Sequence record: NC_135730.1
From: a phage
Strand: one strand, 5' to 3'
DNA: 64,000 nucleotides
Position numbers and translations under genes: made by a program. This document shows, piece after piece, positions 1,923 through 62,573 of the stretch. The number at the start of each line of letters is the position of its first letter. The stretch's first letter is position 1. Below the pieces are notes generated by a model. The model searched no databases. It was not told where the DNA came from and worked only from the letters and a program-made list of their open reading frames with translations.

Positions 1923-2899
1923 TGTCTGAAAAAACGATTACTATTAAAGAGAAGGGGATTGCCCTGTGCCATAAGGCGCAAGGCTATAGCGCTAACAACA
2001 GACCTGTATCTCTTTTGATGAAGAGTGATCTTAAGCCTGAGCAGTTAACAGACGATATTGTTAAGGCACTTCGCCAAGTTACTGTGGAGCTTAGTTTTGA
2101 AGAATACCTGCGTCGTTTCTTCGATATGTGGTATGATGATGCTAAAGCACTTGCACACATGCTTGGTTTTGAGATTGAAGAGGAGGCTTGGGCTAAAGAG
2201 CATCCTGATTGGGAATGGGCGCAAGCTGACGCAGAGTCTTGTATTGCATGGCTGGAAGAGCGTTGTGATAACGTGACCATTCATAAGGCTGCAAAAGAAG
2301 GCAAGCAGCTTAGTGTGGTAGATCAGTACAGCCTGTTAAAAACACAACAGATTTTTGAACAAGTAACCGCTGATCTCTTCGATAAAGAAGGGAACCTGAT
2401 CAAGGCGGTACAGGAACCTGCTGAGGTGGATAAAACTACCGAGGTGGATGATGTTGCAAAATCCGCAAATACCGAGGAGAATCCGGTGGACGTAACCAAA
2501 ACTAAAGAGTATCTGGATCTGCTGAAGCAAGTAGAAGAGCTGAAAGCAACCCAGAGTAAAGCTGAAGAAATCATCAAGGCCCAGGTTGAAGTTGAAAAAG
2601 CTAAAATGCTGACTAAGGCTCAAGCTTTAAGCTTTGTTGGTGAAGAAGATCACGCAACCCTGGTTGACTTCATGCTGGAAAAAGCTAACGAACCTATCGT
2701 AGCTATGCTGGAGAAAGCTCAAGCAAAAATTGAAGAGCTGGAAGCAGAGGTGCATAAAACTAAAGAAGAGTTTGCCACCACTGAACATGGTAATGATGGC
2801 GAACCTGTTGTGGATGATATTGCGAAATCCGCAGAAGAAATTCTTGCTGAAAACGTTGCAAAAGCACTTGCTCGTGCACGTGCAGAATCTAACAAATAA
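1922..2899 (+). CDS. putative scaffolding protein
   Basis: Acidic, helical/coiled-coil-like 325-aa ORF between the XkdF-like and decoration genes; internal repeat VDDVAKSA / VVDDIAKSA; start overlaps the upstream stop (TAATG). Confidence 0.45.
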   Translation: MSEKTITIKEKGIALCHKAQGYSANNRPVSLLMKSDLKPEQLTDDIVKALRQVTVELSFEEYLRRFFDMWYDDAKALAHMLGFEIEEEAWAKEHPDWEWAQADAESCIAWLEERCDNVTIHKAAKEGKQLSVVDQYSLLKTQQIFEQVTADLFDKEGNLIKAVQEPAEVDKTTEVDDVAKSANTEENPVDVTKTKEYLDLLKQVEELKATQSKAEEIIKAQVEVEKAKMLTKAQALSFVGEEDHATLVDFMLEKANEPIVAMLEKAQAKIEELEAEVHKTKEEFATTEHGNDGEPVVDDIAKSAEEILAENVAKALARARAESNK

Positions 2900-4445: not shown

Positions 4446-5291
4446 GTGAAGAGAGCCGTATATCCAGTTGAGTATGATCCGCTATTAAGAGTTTTCAACA
4501 ATCAGTTAAGTTTTTATCAATTTTTAGCACAATATAACCCAGAAATCAATGTTGGTTTATCAGCCCTGCTGCCACCAACAGAATTCGTTATTGGCAGTGT
4601 TCACTATCCATGTAGAACGATTGTAGACTTCTTTGAGAAGATTGCAAAACATACAGGCCTGCCAATTGATACTGGTATTTCAACTATCCGTATGGGTGTT
4701 ATTCTTCTGTTCTTCACAGAGAACCTTGATGAAAGCACTTTAACACTGCAAAGCGGGGATGTCAATATCACCCTCACCCCGTCAGTGTTTAAAGAGGTAG
4801 ATGCTGCTTTCCAAGTTTCCGTGGCAGAGGGGCATCTATGGGACCCTGTAGGGATGCCTAAAAAAGTGACCATAAACGATGAGCAATGCAACATTGTTTA
4901 TGAAGAAGATACCCAAACTTTCACCATTGAGTGGCCTAAGAAACGTTCTCAGGTTGTAAATCTTGGACTGGTTTCTACGATAGCTCCACCGCCTGAACCA
5001 GAACCGGAGCCGCCTGTAGGTCCTACTGAACCTGGTGGTGACGGTGAAGAATCCCCAGATCCGGCTGCACCGGGAGGCACTGAGCAGGATCCTGAACAGG
5101 CACAAGAATCAAGATCTTCTCGCAGTGATATTGATGCCATACTGCAGCAGGCCGCAGCTCTTAACAACGAAGATGACAAAAGTGGTTCAAAAGATGCACT
5201 CCAAACCTTCGCCAAAGAGCACGGTGTTACCTTAAGTAAGGCAAAAACTTTCCAAAATATGATGAAAGATTTTGAGGCTGCACTGGCATAA
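4446..5291 (+). CDS. hypothetical virion-associated protein with Pro/Glu-rich linker
   Basis: GTG start 8 nt after AGGAG; PPPEPEPEPPVGPTEPGG low-complexity linker; followed by a terminator. Confidence 0.4.
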   Translation: MKRAVYPVEYDPLLRVFNNQLSFYQFLAQYNPEINVGLSALLPPTEFVIGSVHYPCRTIVDFFEKIAKHTGLPIDTGISTIRMGVILLFFTENLDESTLTLQSGDVNITLTPSVFKEVDAAFQVSVAEGHLWDPVGMPKKVTINDEQCNIVYEEDTQTFTIEWPKKRSQVVNLGLVSTIAPPPEPEPEPPVGPTEPGGDGEESPDPAAPGGTEQDPEQAQESRSSRSDIDAILQQAAALNNEDDKSGSKDALQTFAKEHGVTLSKAKTFQNMMKDFEAALA

Positions 5292-47540: not shown

Positions 47541-47986
47541 AATAGGTATAGCTCCTTATGAAAGTAGTCTTTTAATTTCTCACTGAGAAACCTCTTGATA
47601 CCTTCCTCTAAAGTGTTTTCGATGTAGTCCAGCTTAACTGCTTCGATGGACATATCATAGATCGCCAGCTCTAAGCTGTCAAGTCCCATCATAGCATGAA
47701 CCATAAGATTTTCATCTTCAGATACATTCAGGGGGCTTCCTATAACATCTGGAGGCAGAATAGTTTCCCAATTATTCTGGGCGGTAGTTCTCCCTCCCTC
47801 TACTTTACGGCGCAGTTCGAATGTGTTCTTAGTGTAGAACACTTCATAAGAAACGATACGACTGTCGCTCTCATAATAAACAAAGTTCAGGTAGGAGCCT
47901 AGCCGCAGTCGGCAAACTTCCACCCCAAACCATTGTTTCTTATAAGAATTCAGGCTAATGCTGTCGCATTCACGTTTGCTCAACAC
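47537..47986 (-). CDS. hypothetical protein
   Basis: 149-aa ORF overlapping the downstream gene by 4 nt. Confidence 0.35.
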   Translation of the reverse strand: MLSKRECDSISLNSYKKQWFGVEVCRLRLGSYLNFVYYESDSRIVSYEVFYTKNTFELRRKVEGGRTTAQNNWETILPPDVIGSPLNVSEDENLMVHAMMGLDSLELAIYDMSIEAVKLDYIENTLEEGIKRFLSEKLKDYFHKELYLL

Positions 47987-48001
47987 GGCTCTCTCCTTTT
48001 A

Positions 48002-48235
48002 TTAATCTTCGTAAATCAGGATTTCTGCTTTAGGTTTTCGTGCTTTCAGGTCCAGCTCTATCCAGTGCACCATAGCTGTTTCAAGAAAAACAGCTTGGAT
48101 GCATCCGTCCTCAGCGTGCCCCACCAACATAACGAGATCTTCACCTTCGTCATCTGCATCACGAACATAAAGAATCTCTCCAGATTCAAAGTCTTTCACA
48201 ACCTGATTGCTAGATAATTTACGAATTTTTGCCAT
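48002..48235 (-). CDS. small protein, paralog family member 4
   Basis: 77 aa; RBS GAGGG; shares the GEIL/GTVV-centred pattern with the three upstream 87-aa ORFs. Confidence 0.4.
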   Translation of the reverse strand: MAKIRKLSSNQVVKDFESGEILYVRDADDEGEDLVMLVGHAEDGCIQAVFLETAMVHWIELDLKARKPKAEILIYED

Positions 48236-49041: not shown

Positions 49042-50523
49042 TTACTTAGCGTACTCGATTAATTCCACAGTTTTCCCAAAGCTCGGGATATAATTTTTAT
49101 TATACCCCTCAGTGAGGACCCATAGAGTATCGTACTTTTTCCACTTGTTGTCAACAACCTTTTGTTCAAAGTTATGCTCAAAGTATAGGTCGGTCAGGAC
49201 GATGACATCTTTTGCATTTGGTATGTTGGCATCCAGATACTCGAACACGCAAGCAGCTGTTGTTCCCCATGTCGAGTGGACCTCATAGTTGATCATTTCG
49301 TCTATGTTGCCGCGAGTGTATACTTTAACCTCTCCAACCTCAGTTGACCAACAGAACATTGTAACCTTAAATTCTTTATACAGATTGCACAATCCGGTGA
49401 TTTCATTGAACATTTTCTTTAAAGTTCTTTGAGAGATCGAGCCAGAAACGTCTAAAGCCACCACAATATCTATAGTGTTTTCCGGATTACGACCAGGAAC
49501 AATAACGTGCTGGTTCTTGTTTATAGCTCCGACTTTTCGCATTGTGCTGGTCAAAGACCCAGATCGGCGACCAGGTTTTCTGTAGGTCAGTTCAGCCTTT
49601 CGTTTAGACAACATGCGTTGCTTGATGATGTCTATATAATTGATTACAGGCTTACCTCTATTCTTGACAAACTCACGAACCGCCTCAGGGCAACGACCTC
49701 CGGAAGCTTGCATTGCTGCCTCAAGCATGTCACCAGAGTCCTGCATGGCCTGATCTTTATCAGATTGGCTGATTACAGGTTGTGGCTGATCATACCCCAT
49801 AGCCTTTCCAAGATCATCACTGGTGCCACCGTTCCCACTCATGTGATCATCGGTTTGTCGCTTATCTCCTTGAGAGTTCTCACCTTTACCGCTCTTACTT
49901 TTACCGTTATTCTGATCTCTTTGCTTATCAAGAACTGCATAGACGTTCTCAGCAATCCATCCATGAAACTTCATGTCGCAGTAGCAGTTAGCTAAGAAGC
50001 CAAAAGGCTTGCCTTTCACGAACGTAGTGCTTTTCCCCTTCGGGAAGAAAACACAAGGAGGCTTGCTAAAGTCAACCACAAGACCTGTGTTGATAACGTG
50101 ATCACAAGCAATATTGAACAGTTCCGGCTCAAAGCTTTTACCACGGACCAGGTGATCACAGATAATATGCCCCACCTCATGTGACAGAAGGAAGGCCACC
50201 TCTTTCACAGATTTTGGGGAATAGAAAACTTCAGCCATCTCAAACTGCTCGTCAGTTAGAGAAGCCTTAAGAATAGCCTTGCGTTCATCAGCCAATCCCA
50301 TAATGAACTCAGGGCTGTAATAAATGCGTTTATGGTCGGTTGCCATGGTGGAGCACCATGTGTGGTTTTCTACGAACTGCAACCCTGACAGCAGTGTGCC
50401 ATAAAACGGCAGCTTTTCAAGGAGATACATACGTGCAGCCTGCAACATTCTCAGGGCATCATCTTTCTGTGAGGCAATGATTTCTGAACTTCTGCTATCC
50501 ATTAAAACTCCAGAAGGGGCCAT
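49042..50523 (-). CDS. metallopeptidase-like / VWA-like domain protein (DUF2201-type)
   Basis: N-terminal HEVGHIICDH (HExxH zinc-peptidase motif); C-terminal IDIVVALDVSGSIS (VWA MIDAS-like DxSxS). Confidence 0.55.
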   Translation of the reverse strand: MAPSGVLMDSRSSEIIASQKDDALRMLQAARMYLLEKLPFYGTLLSGLQFVENHTWCSTMATDHKRIYYSPEFIMGLADERKAILKASLTDEQFEMAEVFYSPKSVKEVAFLLSHEVGHIICDHLVRGKSFEPELFNIACDHVINTGLVVDFSKPPCVFFPKGKSTTFVKGKPFGFLANCYCDMKFHGWIAENVYAVLDKQRDQNNGKSKSGKGENSQGDKRQTDDHMSGNGGTSDDLGKAMGYDQPQPVISQSDKDQAMQDSGDMLEAAMQASGGRCPEAVREFVKNRGKPVINYIDIIKQRMLSKRKAELTYRKPGRRSGSLTSTMRKVGAINKNQHVIVPGRNPENTIDIVVALDVSGSISQRTLKKMFNEITGLCNLYKEFKVTMFCWSTEVGEVKVYTRGNIDEMINYEVHSTWGTTAACVFEYLDANIPNAKDVIVLTDLYFEHNFEQKVVDNKWKKYDTLWVLTEGYNKNYIPSFGKTVELIEYAK

Positions 50524-51586: not shown

Positions 51587-51615
51587 TTGACTTTACTATA
51601 AATCTACGATATAGT
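51587..51615 (+). promoter_or_regulatory. early promoter for the plus-strand block
   Basis: TTGACT -17- TATAGT, 40 nt upstream of ATG 51656. Confidence 0.55.
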
Positions 51616-53846: not shown

Positions 53847-54149
53847 GTGGCAAGGATGCCACTTAAAAGAGTAATAAACATGTTATACCAGCAATATGAA
53901 CTTCGTGCAGAAAAAGAGTTAAATTTTGACAAAGATATTCACAGATATTATTATGGGAAAGTTAGAGGGCAAGCAAGAAAGTGTACTCCAACACTCTTTT
54001 ATGCCAGCAGACGACTAGCGCCAGAAGAGGCAACAGCAGAAAGGGTTGCGTACAACTGGAGAGTCACGTATGATATTGACAGATCCGATGTGATATCTGT
54101 TTTGGAAAACTTTGAAAACACTTACACACAAGTAGAGGACTTTTACTAA
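53847..54149 (+). CDS. hypothetical protein
   Basis: 100-aa ORF; end overlaps the next start. Confidence 0.35.
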   Translation: MARMPLKRVINMLYQQYELRAEKELNFDKDIHRYYYGKVRGQARKCTPTLFYASRRLAPEEATAERVAYNWRVTYDIDRSDVISVLENFENTYTQVEDFY

Positions 54150-55333
54150 TGTCAAGAAACGTATTCGAAAGTGGTCAAATCACTGTCCGTGAGTTGCCAG
54201 CTATTATTCAGTTTGCCCAACGTCATAGCCGATCTGTCCTAATTTTGGGACCAATGGGTGTGGGTAAAAGCCAGGTGATGAAGCAGATCGCTGATAATAT
54301 GTTCGGTGAGCGAGATGACAACCTTGTTGACGTGCGACTGTCAGATAAAGATCCTGCCGACTTATCTGGGCTACCTATCCCTGTAGAAGCGGATGGAACT
54401 ACACGTACAGTGTTTGCAATTCCAGAATTTTGGCCTGCTGATCCTGACTGGAGCGGAATTATCTTTCTGGATGAGCTCACTCATGCAGATAACTACCTGC
54501 AAAAGGTTGCAATGCAAATTATGCTTGACCACAAGTGCGGTACCTATGCATTCCCTAAGGGTTCTGTTTTTGTGGCTGCTGGTAACCGTTCTACAGATGG
54601 TGCGGTTCTTTCGGCGCTCGAAGCCCCTCTGGCTAACCGTTTTATCATTGTAGAGGTTACAAGCAATGCAGAGGTGTTTATTGAGGACTACGCATTCCTT
54701 AATGGGGTGCACTCCTCTGTAATTGGATATCTGAAAAGAGTTCCATCAGCTATCGATAATTATGAGGCCATGGCTGAGATTAATTGTCCATCTTTTGCCA
54801 CACCACGATCTTGGGTTGCTGCATCTGACATCTTGCACGATTTTGACAGCGGTATTATTTCTGACGCTATGGCCCGTGTTCTTCTGCAAGGTGCTATTGG
54901 TCACACTGCAGCGGTAGAGATCTGGACCTACCACACCAAGAAACGCAATTTACCGGAAATCGGTCGGATTATGGCAGGTGGCTGCAAAGAATACGTAGGC
55001 CCTAAGCAGCCAGACATTTTGTGGATTCTTGGATCTGAAGGTTGTATCGCTATTCGTAATATGATGGAAAATGCAAGTATCTCAGACGAAGATCTTGTCA
55101 GCTGCGTGGCAAACTTCCTCGATTTCCTTTGGGAAAACTTCAAGGACGAGAACCGAGATTTTGTATTCTCAGTCTTTATGGCGATGATGAAGCCTAATGC
55201 CTTAGGAAATGCCTTGCTTATCGGTAAAGGTCGTGACAAGATTGTTGCTCAGCTGATCAAAGCATACCCAAACCTGATGAAGATTGTAAAAGAGTTTGGT
55301 GAAGAGTTTAGCGCCATTTTGGCTAAAGCTTAA
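54149..55333 (+). CDS. MoxR / CobS-like AAA+ ATPase
   Basis: Walker A GPMGVGKS and Walker B IIFLDELTHAD; length and layout of AAA_5 / MoxR family. Confidence 0.6.
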   Translation: MSRNVFESGQITVRELPAIIQFAQRHSRSVLILGPMGVGKSQVMKQIADNMFGERDDNLVDVRLSDKDPADLSGLPIPVEADGTTRTVFAIPEFWPADPDWSGIIFLDELTHADNYLQKVAMQIMLDHKCGTYAFPKGSVFVAAGNRSTDGAVLSALEAPLANRFIIVEVTSNAEVFIEDYAFLNGVHSSVIGYLKRVPSAIDNYEAMAEINCPSFATPRSWVAASDILHDFDSGIISDAMARVLLQGAIGHTAAVEIWTYHTKKRNLPEIGRIMAGGCKEYVGPKQPDILWILGSEGCIAIRNMMENASISDEDLVSCVANFLDFLWENFKDENRDFVFSVFMAMMKPNALGNALLIGKGRDKIVAQLIKAYPNLMKIVKEFGEEFSAILAKA

Positions 55334-55342
55334 GGGGGTTGT

Positions 55343-55723
55343 ATGGCTAAAGTAGGTAAGCGGGGAAACTACCTGGTGGTATTGACCGAGGAGCCGGAGA
55401 AGGAGTACGAATGCAGCTCCACTTGCGTGATCGATATCCGAGAAAAAGATGTAGATGAAATCTGGTTTAAAATATTGGACGCTTGCGACAGCAGTGATTA
55501 TTTCTTCATCTATGTCAACGATAAGGCTGGGTTCTTCCATGACGACGGAGAGTTGCCGTATGAAATCTATGAACTTGTAGAGGCTTGCCATCGTGGAGAT
55601 GCGGAGTTGTTTGGCTTACGGCTGAAAAGCGGTAAATTCTTCTATCAAGATGAGTGCATGAATCTTCATAACTTTGTAGAGGGAACTTGCAACGATGGAG
55701 AGATTTTGGCACACTACGATTAA
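55343..55723 (+). CDS. hypothetical protein
   Basis: 126-aa ORF followed by an intrinsic terminator. Confidence 0.35.
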   Translation: MAKVGKRGNYLVVLTEEPEKEYECSSTCVIDIREKDVDEIWFKILDACDSSDYFFIYVNDKAGFFHDDGELPYEIYELVEACHRGDAELFGLRLKSGKFFYQDECMNLHNFVEGTCNDGEILAHYD

Positions 55724-55736
55724 TTTCTAAGACCTC

Positions 55737-55762
55737 CCCCGCTTCGGCGGGGATTTTCTATT
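55737..55762 (+). terminator. intrinsic terminator (TTCG tetraloop)
   Basis: CCCCGC-ttcg-GCGGGG then ATTTTCTATTT. Confidence 0.55.
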
Positions 55763-55772
55763 TGGAGTTATT

Positions 55773-56273
55773 GTGAAAATTAAGATCTTTGCTATTATTT
55801 TGAGCGCATTTTTATCGCTGCCTGTTGTTGCAGCACCAAAACAAAAAGTATATCATACTTGCAAGCCCTCAGATACTAAGGAAAACATTCTGGCATGCAA
55901 TATCTACAGGGAGGCTAGAGGGGATGGCACGATGGGTATGCTGGCATCCGGGTTTGCCACACTAAACAGGAAATCTCACCCCAAATACCCAGACACTATA
56001 AGAAAGATTGTCTACCAACCTAACCAGTTTTCGTGGACAAACCACGGCAAAACTTTTAAGGTGACAGAAAAAGATTCATGGGATCACGCTAAAAGTCTTG
56101 CAAAGATGCTTCTAAAGGTCTATAATAACAACCATGTTGCATACATGGCTATGGACATAACAGGTGGAGCAACACACTACCATACAACCAAAGTACGACC
56201 GAAATGGGCAAAAAAGATGCAGAGGACAGCTCAATTCGGGAGTCATATCTACTACAAGGAGCGCAATAAATGA
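55773..56273 (+). CDS. secreted cell-wall hydrolase (SleB / Hydrolase_2-like)
   Basis: N-terminal signal peptide MKIKIFAIILSAFLSLPVVAA; family-like motifs NIYREARGD, QPNQFSW, GGATHYH; GTG start. Confidence 0.55.
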   Translation: MKIKIFAIILSAFLSLPVVAAPKQKVYHTCKPSDTKENILACNIYREARGDGTMGMLASGFATLNRKSHPKYPDTIRKIVYQPNQFSWTNHGKTFKVTEKDSWDHAKSLAKMLLKVYNNNHVAYMAMDITGGATHYHTTKVRPKWAKKMQRTAQFGSHIYYKERNK

Positions 56274-57389
56274 TTGTAAACAGTAATGAAACTAAAGCAG
56301 TACTAACCGGAAATATGGAGGTCACCAGGGGCTCAATTTCTCTGAACAAAGAGACTTTTGGGCTAATCATTAAAGGGATTTACGAAGATAAGGTGCTGGC
56401 AAGCTGCCGTGAACCAATCTTCAATGCTGTGGACTCTCATGTTGAGTCTGGACGGGGTGATGTGCCGATCATTATTCACTCTCCTACAGACCTTGAACCA
56501 TACTTCTTTGTGCAGGACGTTGGATTGGGCATGTCAGAAGAGATGGTCCGCAACACTTTCATGAACCTCGGTGAGTCAACCAAGCGCAACAGCAACGCTC
56601 TGGTTGGCAATAAAGGTGTTGGTTCAAAGGCTCCGTTCAGCATGGTGGACACTTTCGATGTTATCAGTGTGCACAATGGTATTGAAAGCACATATCTATT
56701 GTTCTTGGATCAGGGTATCCCAAACGTTACCAAGATCCGCGAGCGGAAGACTGAAGAGCACAACGGGGTAAAAGTTCAGTTCCATGTTAAGAAAGAGCAT
56801 GTCCTGAAATATCGCACTGCTATTGCATCGTGCTTACGCTATGCGAAGTTTCCGTTCATCGTCACCGATCCCATGACCAGTAAGATGTTAGAAGGTGACA
56901 AGGTTGAGGCACAGTATCATTACGAGAAGGATGGCTGGAAAATGACCATCCTGAAAGGTTATACCAGTTCTGATGAGAGCCGTGTTGTGATGGGTCACCA
57001 ACCTTACCGCTCCAAGTTCCTGGAGACATTGACCGATTACCCTGCAATCTGCGTGGAAATTCCTATTGGGGATTGCAATATTAACCCTGGGCGTGAATGG
57101 ACCATAGAGGGCCATGACGACGGTGGATTCCAGGATCGCCTGGAGGCATTTGTCAAAGAAGGTATACGTCTTCGCGGGGCAGAAGTTGTTGCAGAACTGG
57201 AGACGGCAAAAACCTCCGCAGAAGCACGTGAAATGATGAAGAATAGTGGAGTGTTCGGACACATCTTCGGCAAGAACTTTATGTGGAACCGTTGGGAAGA
57301 AACAGGGCTTGGCGACTTAGGCGATTGTGAAATTTTCGCTGGCGGCTTAAATAAAGGCCGCATAGGCTATGCTTGTTACGGAAAGTCGG
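56270..57389 (+). CDS. GHKL-family (Bergerat-fold) ATPase, N-terminal portion; 3' end runs into the assembly gap
   Basis: N-box REPIFNAVDS (ExxxNAxD), G1 box DVGLGMS (DxGxG), G2 box GNKGVGSKAPF; ORF continues into the N run at 57390. Confidence 0.5.
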
Positions 57390-57399
57390 NNNNNNNNNN
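57390..57399. other. assembly gap (10 N)
   Basis: Run of ten n characters in the sequence. Confidence 0.99.
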
Positions 57400-58262
57400 A
57401 GTTCTTACGAGGTGTATACCTTGTATTTAACGACGGAGACGGCAAATATAACCGGAATAAGTGTAACTACTTAAGCGAGATCACCGGACGCAACGTTTTC
57501 TATTGCCGGAACACGGATCTGGTGAAAGAGTTTAAAGAGGCGGCACACCATCCGTTCTTTGCAGATACGGTCAAATTGTTATCGGAGCTTCCACGCCGAC
57601 CTGCGAAGAAAGGTGAAACCAAAACTCGTTACGAGCCAGGCTACTGGGTTAAGAAGCTTAGAGAGGATGGCTACTTCCATCGTGAGCGCCTCACGAAGGC
57701 AGAGTTCAAGAAGATTAAGCATTGCATCCCTTATGAGGGGGATATCCAACGGGGAAGCTGCTGGCTGGGCCAGATGAGTAACATCTACCAGCAAAATTAT
57801 GACCGTGTGCGTGCTGCACTCCAGATTCCTGAAGGTGAAGATCTGTACCTGGTATCAGAATCTCGTCTGCTTTGGACTGATCCTGATTGCCAGTATGTTA
57901 CAGAGAAGAATGTGGAACATTTGTTGAAAGAGGATGCTTGGAAATTCTTACTGACTCGCGCAGCAAATGAAACTTCATATGACAGCCTGTATAGACAATT
58001 AGGGAAAATTATCCCCATGCAGGATTTTGGAAATTATCGGCCACATTTCCACAAGTGGGAAGGTAACACCGCGTGGAAGCACAGTGAGCTAAATCATCGT
58101 GCCAAAATCTTAATCGCCAACCGGGTTAAGTGCGGGAAGGCCTATATTGCAAGATTGGAAAAGAAATATCCACTTTTGAAGCATGTGGGCTTGAAATATT
58201 GGGACACTCCTGCTATGATTGAATACCGTGAACTGATCGATACAAAGAATAACATCAAATAA
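57400..58262 (+). CDS. hypothetical protein, post-gap portion (possibly the C-terminal part of the GHKL ATPase gene)
   Basis: Open frame from the gap to the stop at 58262; reading-frame relationship to the upstream ORF cannot be determined across the gap. Confidence 0.35.
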
Positions 58263-58272
58263 GGAGACCAAG

Positions 58273-59478
58273 ATGATTTTCATCTACGAACATTTCAAAA
58301 CCCGTAAAGAAGCACGAGACCGCCGTGCAGAACTTGAGAAGAAGGGTTTCACATGTGCCATTGAGAAAGGCGACACAACCTGGACACTGGCAGTTGGTGC
58401 CCCAGAGTTGTTCGATCCTGACCGTGACAGCGTCTGCTACACCCGTGAGGATTTTGAAACCCGCGAAGAGGCCCGTTTATTTCGATACGGTCTGGAAGAT
58501 AACGGTAAGTACGCTATGATCTTAGATTTAGGCGAAGGTTCCGTTAAACGTTGGGGCGTGGTATACCCACTGTGTGTTGTTCACGGTGTGGGGTTCACTG
58601 GGGTAGCAATCAAGTCAGAAGAACCTTTAGTAGAAGTCAAAGATCCGGTGCTGGAGGTGGTGAGCAGTGTGTCTCAGCAACAGTCTCGAAGCATCGAGCC
58701 TTTGGTAGTTATTTGTGGGGAACTCCTCCAGATCACCTGCAACGAAGGCATTTTTGAAATTCGCCGCAGCGAAAGTGAGGAAGTTTACCAGAAAGTCTTC
58801 GACCATATCTCTGTTCAGGAATATGATGAGGCAATTGGTGAAATCCTTGTCTGGCTGGAACGCAAGAATGAGTTCACCACACTTGCAGACAACCTGATCA
58901 TGAAAGATGGCAAGCTCTACTACTACGGTGTAGAGATGCGATCCACCATTGCAAAGAAAATTGAGAAAGATTATGCAGACGGAACGCTGGATGACCGCTA
59001 TGTGAAATTCCTCGTTCGCCTGCTACGCAATCCTTCTGCAAAATCTGTAAACATGCTCTACGATTTTATGCAGGCCAACGATATCCAGATTGCAGAAGAT
59101 GGTCGAATCATTTGCTACAAAGGGGTTCAGTTTAACGGCAGCAAGTGGGTGGATTGGCACAGTGGTAAAGTTCCACAATACCAGGGTGCTTTTGTATCCA
59201 TGCCTCGTAACTTTGTAGAGGATGATCCTGAAGCTGCGTGCTCCTATGGCTTACACTGCGCCAGCAAGGAGTATGCAAAGAGCTACGGCACTGTAATGAC
59301 TGTTATGGTTGATCCTGCAGATGTGGTTAGTGTGCCATACCAACACAATAGCGCTAAATGCCGTGCATGCCGCTATGAGATTGTGGTAGCTCCGGAAGCA
59401 CGCAAAGATGGAGACCCTATTGAATATGTAGTTGATCGTGACGGTAATACTATCGACATTCTTTACGAGGAGGCGTAA
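58273..59478 (+). CDS. hypothetical protein with two N-terminal ~45-aa tandem repeats
   Basis: Repeats EHFKTRKEARDRRAELEKKGFTCAIEKGDTTWTL and EDFETREEARLFRYGLEDNGKYAMILDLGEG; RBS AAGGAGA. Confidence 0.35.
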   Translation: MIFIYEHFKTRKEARDRRAELEKKGFTCAIEKGDTTWTLAVGAPELFDPDRDSVCYTREDFETREEARLFRYGLEDNGKYAMILDLGEGSVKRWGVVYPLCVVHGVGFTGVAIKSEEPLVEVKDPVLEVVSSVSQQQSRSIEPLVVICGELLQITCNEGIFEIRRSESEEVYQKVFDHISVQEYDEAIGEILVWLERKNEFTTLADNLIMKDGKLYYYGVEMRSTIAKKIEKDYADGTLDDRYVKFLVRLLRNPSAKSVNMLYDFMQANDIQIAEDGRIICYKGVQFNGSKWVDWHSGKVPQYQGAFVSMPRNFVEDDPEAACSYGLHCASKEYAKSYGTVMTVMVDPADVVSVPYQHNSAKCRACRYEIVVAPEARKDGDPIEYVVDRDGNTIDILYEEA

Positions 59479-61247: not shown

Positions 61248-62573
61248 ATGAGTAAAACCAAATTAGAACTTACCTGGATAGGTAAAAACGAGCGCAAAAA
61301 GTTAGAGCCGCACATTTTGTTAGAAGATTCTAGCAAGTCTTACCACAGCCAGAAAGTGACCGAAAACGATATTTTTGATAATAAACTGATTTTTGGAGAT
61401 AACTTATTAGCATTGAAGGCGCTAGAGCAAGAGTACGCAGGCAAAGTGAAGTGTGTTTACATAGACCCACCATTCAATACCGGGAGGGCTTTTGAGCACT
61501 ACGATGATAGCCTGGAGCATTCCATTTGGCTGGGCTTAATGAGGGATAGGTTAGAAATAATTCGTAATCTTCTAAGTGATGATGGGGTAATATTCGTTCA
61601 CTTAGATGATTGCGAAATGGCGTATTTAAAAGTTTTGATGGACGAGATTTTTGGTCGTGCAAATCAGTTAAATACCATATCGATGACCACAAATTCCCCT
61701 TCGGGATTTAAGGCAACGGGAGCCACAGTTTTCTCCACAGCAAACTTTTTGCTTGTATATGCAAAAGATCGCACCCAGAAACCGCTTAACAAAATCTATA
61801 TACCTAAAGGGTATGATACCGGATATAACAAATACCTATTAAACCCGGATGATCATTATAAAAATTGGACGTGGTGCGGTATTGCCGATGCGTTTGCAAA
61901 GGCCAATGGCTACAAAGATGCAAAAGAAGCCAAGAAAAAACTGCCTGACACATTCGAGGATGAATTAGCACAATTTGCAATTGATAATGCAGAACGTGTA
62001 TTTCAATCTGTTGCAATTGGTGGTGGTGCTAAAATAAAGAGAAAAGAAACTATAGAGAAGTCAAAGAAAGATAGGGATAAGGTTTATGTACATCCAAATG
62101 AGGATGTTGAAGGATTTTATATCGCAAATGGTAGGCAAATGGTCTTTTACTCCAACAGGCTTTTGGAAATTGACGGTGATATGCAACCTGCGGAACTAAT
62201 AACTGATGTTTGGACAGACATTAGTTGGAATGGAATAGCAAATGAAGGCGGCGTTAGTTTCAAAAATGGTAAAAAACCAGAAGCGCTTTTGAAGCGGATT
62301 TTCGAAATGTGTACGCGAGAAGGTGATTTGGTATTGGATTCATTCGGTGGTTCGGGAACTACTGCCGCTGTAGCTCACAAGATGAAAAGACGTTGGATCT
62401 CCATCGAGATCGGTGATCATTGCCATACCCATATTATTCCGCGCTTGGAAAAAGTGATCGATGGGGAAGATCAAGGTGGTATTTCTAAGTCTGTAAACTG
62501 GCAAGGTGGTGGTGGCTTCCGTTATTACAAACTTGCCCCGACCTTAATTGCGAAAGATAAGTCTGATCAATAA
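61248..62573 (+). CDS. DNA methyltransferase, beta-class (N6-adenine or N4-cytosine)
   Basis: Motif IV IDPPFNTG precedes motif I LDSFGGSGTT with a long intervening region; RBS AAGGAGAG. Confidence 0.65.
   Translation: MSKTKLELTWIGKNERKKLEPHILLEDSSKSYHSQKVTENDIFDNKLIFGDNLLALKALEQEYAGKVKCVYIDPPFNTGRAFEHYDDSLEHSIWLGLMRDRLEIIRNLLSDDGVIFVHLDDCEMAYLKVLMDEIFGRANQLNTISMTTNSPSGFKATGATVFSTANFLLVYAKDRTQKPLNKIYIPKGYDTGYNKYLLNPDDHYKNWTWCGIADAFAKANGYKDAKEAKKKLPDTFEDELAQFAIDNAERVFQSVAIGGGAKIKRKETIEKSKKDRDKVYVHPNEDVEGFYIANGRQMVFYSNRLLEIDGDMQPAELITDVWTDISWNGIANEGGVSFKNGKKPEALLKRIFEMCTREGDLVLDSFGGSGTTAAVAHKMKRRWISIEIGDHCHTHIIPRLEKVIDGEDQGGISKSVNWQGGGGFRYYKLAPTLIAKDKSDQ

Follow-up and report, generated by a model that had tools for sequence, protein, structure and literature searches.

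A predicted Sec-exported SleB-family enzyme, gp2, in the early region of an rV5-like coliphage and its possible accessory role in murein breakdown

A phage gene whose product combines an export signal with a cell wall hydrolase domain, and which is located in an early/replication block, raises the question of whether it encodes an endolysin that reaches the murein by secretion or a factor that remodels peptidoglycan during infection. Such a gene had been predicted in a 64,000-nucleotide stretch of phage DNA (sequence record NC_135730.1), called here the window, and its location in an early/replication block is confirmed by the present analysis.

Between positions 54000 and 58500 the window shares 97-99.4% DNA identity with more than 100 rV5-like phages of the genus Vequintavirus. 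By this similarity the window is part of a Vequintavirus, that is, an rV5-like phage of E. coli, and the gene is that of rV5 gp2. Both proteins have 166 residues, both genes occupy the same position with respect to gp3 and rIIA and are preceded by the same terminator (t003), and the copy in the window differs from that of rV5 by a residue or two. The feature is known already: gp2 has been annotated since 2013 as a "cell wall hydrolase" of 166 residues with PF07486 (Kropinski et al. 2013), and a signal peptide and toxicity were published for the subfamily in 2020. Thus, the SleB-like CB7_83, with homologues in all the genera of the Vequintavirinae, possesses a signal peptide and proved toxic on expression in E. 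coli (given as data not shown), while a part in host lysis is ascribed to CR3_087 (Buttimer et al. 2020). The Vequintavirinae orthologues CB7_83, CR3_087 and bas59_0064 are the same gene. Those of Certrevirus differ in lacking a rIIA neighbour and in having beside the gene a small holin candidate with two transmembrane domains (TMDs), a class II holin candidate whose gene, in most Certrevirus phages, overlaps that of the hydrolase (Buttimer et al. 2020).

The hydrolase domain that was originally predicted is clearly present. The Pfam profile Hydrolase_2 (PF07486) matches residues 51-161 of gp2 with an E value of 2.1e-19 and a score of 70.4 bits, the curated gathering score being 27 bits, and positions 2-100 of the 100 in the profile are covered. 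PHROG 938, called "endolysin", matches gp2 with an E value of 1.7e-27. Both matches are far beyond chance. The name "endolysin" is applied to gp2 homologues in PHROG 938 and also in many GenBank records.

Direct sequence matches were obtained to the SleB catalytic domains 4f55 (E 2.5e-6) and 4fet (E 1.8e-5). An AlphaFold2 model of gp2, made from an alignment of 51 homologues, has a mean pLDDT of 92.6, and a Foldseek search of the PDB with this model returned the same two structures only (probability 1.0, target TM 0.72-0.79), the next matches in that database all having E values above 2. The catalytic groove of B. subtilis SleB contains E203, R222, Y278 and H301 (PMC13556211). In the alignment, E47, R66, Y136 and H158 of gp2 are the counterparts of the groove residues of the B. 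cereus and B. anthracis SleB proteins, and the spacing between the glutamate and the arginine is 19 residues in gp2 as in SleB. E47 and R66 are invariant among the 51 homologues and H158 is nearly so. By homology, gp2 would be a lytic transglycosylase. Since muramic-delta-lactam is absent from E. coli murein, activity of gp2 on the host murein is assumed, and its substrate recognition must differ from that of SleB and CwlJ. The substrate of the latter two is the spore cortex, which contains this lactam (PMC13556211).

With the Bacillus SleB and CwlJ proteins gp2 shares the catalytic fold, the catalytic glutamate and the groove of arginine, tyrosine and histidine. It is a single-domain protein, like CwlJ, and has an N-terminal signal peptide, like SleB. 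However, it is only about 21-24% identical to SleB, contains an additional helical stretch inserted around residues 98-127, and has neither the N-terminal peptidoglycan (PG)-binding domain, which was absent in a Pfam scan, nor a YpeB-type gene nearby. Against TIGR02869, the NCBIfam SleB equivalog, gp2 scores 48.3 bits where the cut-off is 236.5, and the C-terminal catalytic part alone aligns. The equivalog score, the missing PG-binding domain and the missing YpeB partner led us to reject gp2 as SleB proper. A search of the literature yielded no biochemical or genetic work on phage proteins of the Hydrolase_2 family, nor any characterised endolysin with this domain from a Gram-negative phage; Lysqdvp001, considered as a precedent for the latter, is in fact composed of PG_binding and CHAP domains.

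The N-terminus of gp2, MKIKIFAIILSAFLSLPVVA/APKQK, has the features of a classical Sec type I signal peptide. It carries two lysines (K2 and K4), followed by about 15 residues of hydrophobic core (residues 5-16 in the n/h/c test; Kyte-Doolittle value of 2.7-2.95 over 10-12 residues) and then by P17, at position -4, and V18-V19-A20. A20/A21 is the sole signal peptidase I site permitted by the -3/-1 rule with proline barred at +1. Hydrophobicity, rule and single site together bear out the cleavable-looking signal peptide of the original prediction, and the predicted mature protein would have 146 residues, 16.9 kDa, a pI of about 10 and exactly two cysteines. A signal-anchor-release (SAR) endolysin was also considered and rejected, since the N-terminus is not a weakly hydrophobic TMD rich in Gly, Ala and Ser: the core, IFAIILSAFLSL, is strongly hydrophobic, Gly, Ala and Ser account for only about 31% of positions 5-20, and the core is followed by a canonical cleavage site.

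An export signal is a property of the whole group of proteins and not of gp2 alone. A profile search for relatives yielded 1,798 proteins at E<1e-6, the best 120 of which were inspected, and every full-length homologue among these 120 has an N-terminal hydrophobic signal. Across the full-length homologues this signal is conserved as a property, without a shared sequence. Two subgroups can be distinguished among the best 120: one of rV5 type, with 166-181 residues and type I signal peptides that end in A-x-A before K-E/D, and another of about 154 residues, found on phage-like contigs, with a lipobox-like LLSTAS/C. N-terminal hydrophobic segments are also present in the translated homologues of T5-like phages (IrisVonRoten), Mydovirus (KpS8), Certrevirus (CR9), Phapecoctavirus (Nernie), Pakpunavirus (PAK_P4), Menderavirus (Mendera) and Plateaulakevirus (Aeromonas phage 2L372X), and in those of Vibrio phage F95 and the Pseudomonas jumbo phage phi30-2; phages of Stenotrophomonas, Aeromonas, Vibrio and Pseudomonas are thus among those with such a segment. 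Every homologue examined has an export or anchor segment, and about ten phage lineages are represented. In PAK_P4 and phi30-2 the N-terminal transmembrane segment is uncharged and looks like an anchor rather than a cleavable signal, so that homologues of the PAK_P4 type may be anchored in the membrane.

The cysteines are consistent with this destination. Residues 30 and 42, which could form a disulfide next to the active-site helix, are both cysteines in 31 of the 51 aligned homologues; the other 20, including T5-like and lipobox-type members, have cysteines at 39 and 77 instead, and two of these 20 also keep Cys 42. The existence of two mutually exclusive pairs, the members of each always occurring together, argues for periplasmic disulfides. 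Taken as a statement about what the protein is, the identification of the gene as rV5 gp2, a Sec-exported, single-domain enzyme of the SleB family, is made with high confidence.

The genomic surroundings differ in part from those first described. The original prediction placed the gene between an AAA+ ATPase and a GHKL ATPase. The AAA+ ATPase is real, a MoxR-type protein encoded at 54149-55333, but it is not adjacent: it lies two genes upstream, and gp3 (55343-55723) is found in between. The supposed GHKL ATPase is the N-terminal part of rIIA, which directly follows gp2 (PHROG 612, E 8.5e-102; HATPase_c_3 in the N-terminal part). This part seems to be a separate ORF of 386 residues only because the rIIA frame is split by ten consecutive N at 57390-57399, an insertion relative to a related genome. 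In EduardKellenberger, a phage with 98.9% identity, the order of genes is MoxR ATPase, hypothetical protein, "putative cell wall hydrolase", rIIA, rIIB and helicase. In the window, the stop codon of gp2 and the start codon of rIIA overlap, and translation of the two genes is probably coupled through this overlap (Table 1).

Table 1. Positions of gp2 and of the elements in and around it within the window
Feature	Position	Strand	Basis and details
Sigma-70 promoter P010 of rV5 (candidate)	51587..51615	+	TTGACT-17-TATAGT; match with 2 mismatches to the published sequence, 0 expected by chance
Strong promoter-like site	53926-53954	+	11/12 consensus matches
Predicted intrinsic terminator	55737..55762	+	CCCCGC-TTCG-GCGGGG + ATTTTCTATT; terminator scan; t003 of rV5, -16 kcal/mol
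Shine-Dalgarno GGAG	55761..55764	+	8 nt 5' of the GTG start; read from the sequence
gp2-type gene, SleB/CwlJ family (Hydrolase_2)	55773..56273	+	GTG start at 55773, precursor of 166 aa, read from the sequence; ORF listing, Pfam, AF2, Foldseek
Predicted signal peptide, residues 1-20 (MKIKIFAIILSAFLSLPVVA)	55773..55832	+	Predicted signal peptidase I cut A20/A21; hydrophobicity, -3/-1 rule
C30 to C42 segment, putative periplasmic disulfide beside the active-site helix	55860..55898	+	The only two Cys of the protein
Codon of E47, predicted catalytic Glu	55911..55913	+	Motif NIYRE47ARGD; aligns with the Glu of YGESRGE in 4f55/4fet
ATGA overlap, gp2 stop / rIIA start	56270..56273	+	Sequence, ORF coordinates, PHROG 612

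A conserved partner for the enzyme was sought among the neighbours. In seven lineages the genes up- and downstream have no mutual similarity and none of them encodes a transmembrane segment; this comparison led us to reject a conserved inhibitor, holin or YpeB-like partner gene. Nor could gp3 be accepted as a partner on account of T5.083, since T5.083 is the Hydrolase_2 gene itself and gp3 has no match in a T5-like locus. The supplementary table for rV5 pairs T5.083 with gp3, which is due to a row shift in that table.

The signals around the gene bear on the time of its expression. The hairpin of the terminator, CCCCGCTTCGGCGGGG, is followed by a T-tract, and some 10 nt separate the end of the terminator from the Shine-Dalgarno sequence of gp2; between the terminator and gp2 there is no promoter and no room for one. 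P010 heads the operon that leads into the terminator and gp2, being the first promoter upstream of it on the same strand. The "late" motif of rV5, TGGTAAAATA, searched on the + strand with up to one mismatch, has 17 matches, 14 of them at 1.5-42.5 kb and three at 62.0-63.2 kb; under these same conditions no match occurs between 42.6 and 62 kb. From this layout of promoters, terminator and late motifs we infer that gp2 would be transcribed early by the host polymerase, through attenuated read-through of the terminator. Pairing of the Shine-Dalgarno sequence and the start codon with upstream sequence is rich in wobble pairs and contributes just about 4 kcal/mol beyond the terminator hairpin.

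In other lineages the arrangement of these signals varies. Hairpins equivalent to t003 precede the KpS8, CR9 and PAK_P4 orthologues, and a consensus sigma-70 promoter lies directly upstream of the Hydrolase_2 homologue in Nernie, Mendera and F95. The terminator as a universal damping device had to be discarded: Nernie and Mendera add a promoter after the hairpin, F95 has the promoter only, and the T5-like phages, 2L372X and phi30-2 have neither. A non-late class of the gene is also suggested in other lineages: by the sigma-70 promoters of Nernie, Mendera and F95, by the PAK_P4 homologue, gp154, which belongs neither to the early region (gp80-124) nor to the late one (gp1-34), the latter containing the endolysin gp29 together with holin and spanin candidates, and by the map position of T5.083, which falls in the early region of T5.

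The absence of holin and spanin genes next to gp2 had been used as an argument in the original prediction. This argument is moot because rV5-like phages have no lysis cassette, so that missing neighbours of this kind are uninformative. In EduardKellenberger the spanins adjoin terL, a holin candidate is found at 84 kb, about 26 kb away, and the canonical endolysin is encoded at 120 kb, about 62 kb away, among genes for an exonuclease, a ligase and homing endonucleases. This endolysin is a lysozyme of lambda-R type (1am7, E 6e-31) with a hydrophilic N-terminus and no signal. The idea that gp2 is the sole or main non-virion murein hydrolase is therefore not upheld, the 98.9%-identical phage encoding this second enzyme. 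A canonical endolysin accompanies the Hydrolase_2 gene in PAK_P4, Phapecoctavirus and T5 as well.

The reading that we prefer, tentatively and with somewhat less than even confidence in the statement as a whole, its role included, is that gp2 is an exported accessory transglycosylase that is made early and placed in the periplasm in advance, without a holin. Host RNA polymerase would start at early sigma-70 promoters (P010 and possibly the promoter-like site at 53926) and most transcripts would end at the terminator, read-through carrying gp2, rIIA, rIIB and the helicase gene. Translation would begin at a weak GTG and would therefore give little gp2 protein. The precursor would be exported by Sec and cut after A20, and the mature enzyme, with a disulfide between C30 and C42, would remain in the periplasm, where E47 would catalyse the cut of the MurNAc-GlcNAc bond in the host murein, no holin being needed for access. 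At low dose gp2 would be tolerated while the cell is energised and repairs its wall, and it would add to wall breakdown once the holin has collapsed the membrane potential. As the phage also has a cytoplasmic, holin-dependent lysozyme of lambda-R type, the exported enzyme is most likely accessory.

Murein enzymes that reach the wall by means of Sec, without a holin, have precedents in Lys44 of the Oenococcus phage fOg44 and in the SAR endolysins P1 Lyz and R21. The logic of a pre-positioned enzyme would be that of Lys44 and, by analogy with Lys44 and the SAR endolysins, a Sec-delivered gp2 would have to be kept in check up to the moment at which the membrane is de-energised. Unlike these enzymes, gp2 belongs to another catalytic family and coexists with a normal cytoplasmic endolysin. 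It also differs from the SAR endolysins in its strongly hydrophobic N-terminus and V-x-A site, there being no releasable anchor rich in Gly and Ala.

A different possibility, which we hold to be real though rather unlikely, is that gp2 has no part in lysis and remodels peptidoglycan during infection, bringing about an early change in the sacculus of the living cell. Its purpose could be to loosen the wall of a swelling cell, to interfere with septation, to change the envelope against superinfecting phages, or to work together with the membrane-associated rIIA and rIIB. The best argument for this alternative is that the canonical endolysin is already of the lytic transglycosylase type, so that the exported enzyme would differ from it in location and timing only: a second lytic transglycosylase would bring no new bond specificity, which would weaken a function as simple helper endolysin and favour a role set by place and time. 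Moreover, at least five unrelated lineages of large virulent phages possess both a cytoplasmic endolysin and an exported Hydrolase_2 protein encoded in an early or nucleotide-metabolism block. The genes of T5 (T5.083), Phapecoctavirus, Pakpunavirus and Menderavirus, with 33-41% identity to gp2, all encode stand-alone proteins with an export or anchor segment and paired cysteines, lie in such blocks and are found besides a canonical endolysin; several of these lineages use a sigma-70 promoter of their own for the gene, whereas gp2 would depend on read-through of a terminator. The ATGA overlap with rIIA and the lack of a holin-like neighbour in most lineages point in the same direction. However, the bona fide endolysin genes of these phages are also located in non-late blocks, and position can therefore not separate lysis from remodelling. 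Adjacency to rIIA is seen only in Vequintavirus and phages closely related to it, and Certrevirus, which has no rII genes, still keeps the enzyme; the class II holin candidate beside the Certrevirus gene points to lysis. In EdH4, another rV5-like phage, knock-downs of rIIA and rIIB matter on Rex lysogens only.

It is improbable that gp2 is idle on E. coli murein, either as a moron that is maintained because of a different host or substrate, or as a wall-binding protein. The cortex-specific substrate requirement of SleB and CwlJ would fit with this, as would the distance of gp2 from the SleB equivalog (48 bits against 236.5 for TIGR02869) and the dispensability of the T5 homologue in a knock-down screen. 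In that screen (T5 CRISPRi-ART) T5.083 was scored as "Not Fit", but so was the T5 endolysin; a screen in which knock-down of the endolysin causes no fitness defect either is insensitive and cannot decide on T5.083. In addition, the catalytic glutamate and the groove residues are strictly kept in lineages that infect only non-sporulating Gram-negative hosts, gp2 is retained intact, at 95-100% identity, in more than 100 Vequintavirus genomes, and phages of Gram-negative bacteria employ the Hydrolase_2 domain in polyvalent proteins that are injected. The reported toxicity of CB7_83 also speaks against an idle protein.

The same toxicity, the report that CR3_087 is implicated in host lysis and the "endolysin" labels of PHROG 938 and many GenBank records could suggest that gp2 is the principal endolysin of the phage, delivered by Sec and independent of a holin. 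We consider this very unlikely. The closest annotated relative possesses the lambda-R-type lysozyme, spanins and the holin candidate described above. Kropinski et al. assigned the lysin to gp89, not to gp2, and LysECP26, an endolysin of the lambda-R type purified from an rV5-like phage, lysed 29/29 Gram-negative strains in vitro. Besides, a main lytic enzyme that is exported early without regulation would kill the host before progeny is formed.

Finally, a virion-associated lysin that opens the wall at DNA injection, a function for which Hydrolase_2 domains in large injected "DarB-like" or polyvalent proteins could be invoked, is hardly credible, as a cleavable Sec signal is incompatible with virion assembly in the cytoplasm, the gp2-type protein is absent from the virion mass-spectrometry lists of rV5 and CB7, the gene is outside the structural block, and the phage is already equipped with a gp25-like protein and with a baseplate spike that bears the annotation tail lysozyme.

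For the window itself the analysis means very little, its gene being a near-identical and correctly annotated copy of rV5 gp2. However, among the sequenced phages that infect enterobacteria, Pseudomonas, Vibrio and other bacteria, hundreds encode an exported SleB-like enzyme alongside a regular endolysin, and the label "endolysin" that databases attach to the exported enzymes rests on homology alone. It is conceivable, although we are inclined to doubt it, that an early function is shared by Vequintavirinae, Phapecoctavirus, T5-like phages, Pakpunavirus, Menderavirus and others, in which an exported or anchored, disulfide-bonded enzyme of the SleB family edits the living sacculus. It may be expressed with restraint from promoters of host type, besides a holin-dependent endolysin, and may serve for envelope conditioning, for blocking division or in the interplay with defence and superinfection. 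If the enzyme does act before lysis, this would be a new kind of early manipulation of the host envelope; if, instead, it serves as a helper lysin independently of a holin, it would bear on the timing of lysis and on which enzymes are chosen for use as enzybiotics.

The rV5 paper (Kropinski et al. 2013) gives T5.083 as the homologue of gp3 in its Supplementary Table S3. This assignment is ruled out, since T5.083 carries the Hydrolase_2 domain and is a homologue of gp2 (window 55773-56273), while no match to gp3 (window 55343-55723) could be detected in a T5-like locus. Judged from these matches, the published pairing is a row shift. The Hydrolase_2 proteins related to gp2 contain one of two mutually exclusive pairs of cysteines, as deduced from alignment A2 of the homologues. 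The pair 30+42 is that of the rV5 type, represented in the window by C30 and C42, and the pair 39+77 is found in the T5-like and lipobox types; both members of either pair invariably co-occur. The two pairs suggest two independent solutions for a periplasmic disulfide that stabilises the protein.

The canonical endolysin of EduardKellenberger, a close annotated relative, is encoded by bas59_0188. The product matches lambda lysozyme 1am7 (E 6e-31) and had no Pfam match at E<=0.01 in the Pfam copy searched; in the rV5 paper, gp89, the lysin named there, was put in PF00959.

With respect to late transcription, a + strand search of the window for TGGTAAAATA, the rV5 "late promoter" motif, gives 17 hits with at most one mismatch, 14 of them in the structural block (1.5-42.5 kb); no + strand match at this threshold is present from 42.6 to 62 kb. 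This distribution fits a real class of late promoters. Homologues of T4 gp33/45/55 are absent from rV5 despite the late-promoter-like motif.

Features located in the window and in related phages
Feature	Sequence	Coordinates	Strand	Remark
DUF2201 protein	window	49042-50523	-	DUF2201_N metallopeptidase-like + VWA-like
MoxR-type AAA+ ATPase	window	54149-55333	+	
Apparent rIIA ORF	window	56270-57430		produced by gap; piece of one gene
Apparent rIIA ORF	window	57369-58262		produced by gap; piece of the same gene
441-aa ORF	window	61248-62573	+	DPPF motif (…VYIDPPFNTG…)
Canonical endolysin	EduardKellenberger (L003)	47549-48028		bas59_0188
Upstream region, gp2 homologue	Nernie (L007)	4908-5001		
Upstream region, gp2 homologue	Mendera (L010)	2393-2486		
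Upstream region, gp2 homologue	Vibrio phage F95 (L012)	2407-2468		

VWA proteins are the usual working partners of MoxR ATPases. The DUF2201 protein and the MoxR-type ATPase are encoded on opposite strands, about 3.6 kb apart. The PHROGs label of the DUF2201 protein, "HNH endonuclease", looks like a mislabel. The 441-aa ORF looks like an N6/N4 DNA methyltransferase and may be a strain-specific anti-restriction insertion; at the matching position after the helicase, EduardKellenberger has only small hypothetical genes.

A run of ten N (57390-57399) lies within rIIA. It is an insertion relative to EduardKellenberger, where GGAAAGTCGG and AGTTCTTACG are contiguous, and on this comparison it is a scaffold gap, which shifts the frame.

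Among the best DNA matches of window 54000-58500 are unannotated records with the names "Campylobacter phage C5" and "A140", whose host is given as C. jejuni. These records are >99% identical to rV5-like phages of E. coli. The host label on those 16 "Campylobacter" records looks doubtful.

The start codon of the gp2 homologue is TTG in KpS8, a Mydovirus phage, and in Nernie, and GTG in the window. In Nernie and Mendera a terminator hairpin lies upstream of the gene, with a consensus sigma-70 promoter between hairpin and gene; Vibrio phage F95 has the promoter alone, without the hairpin. As predicted from these elements, the gp2 homologue of the three phages is a self-contained, moron-like transcription unit.
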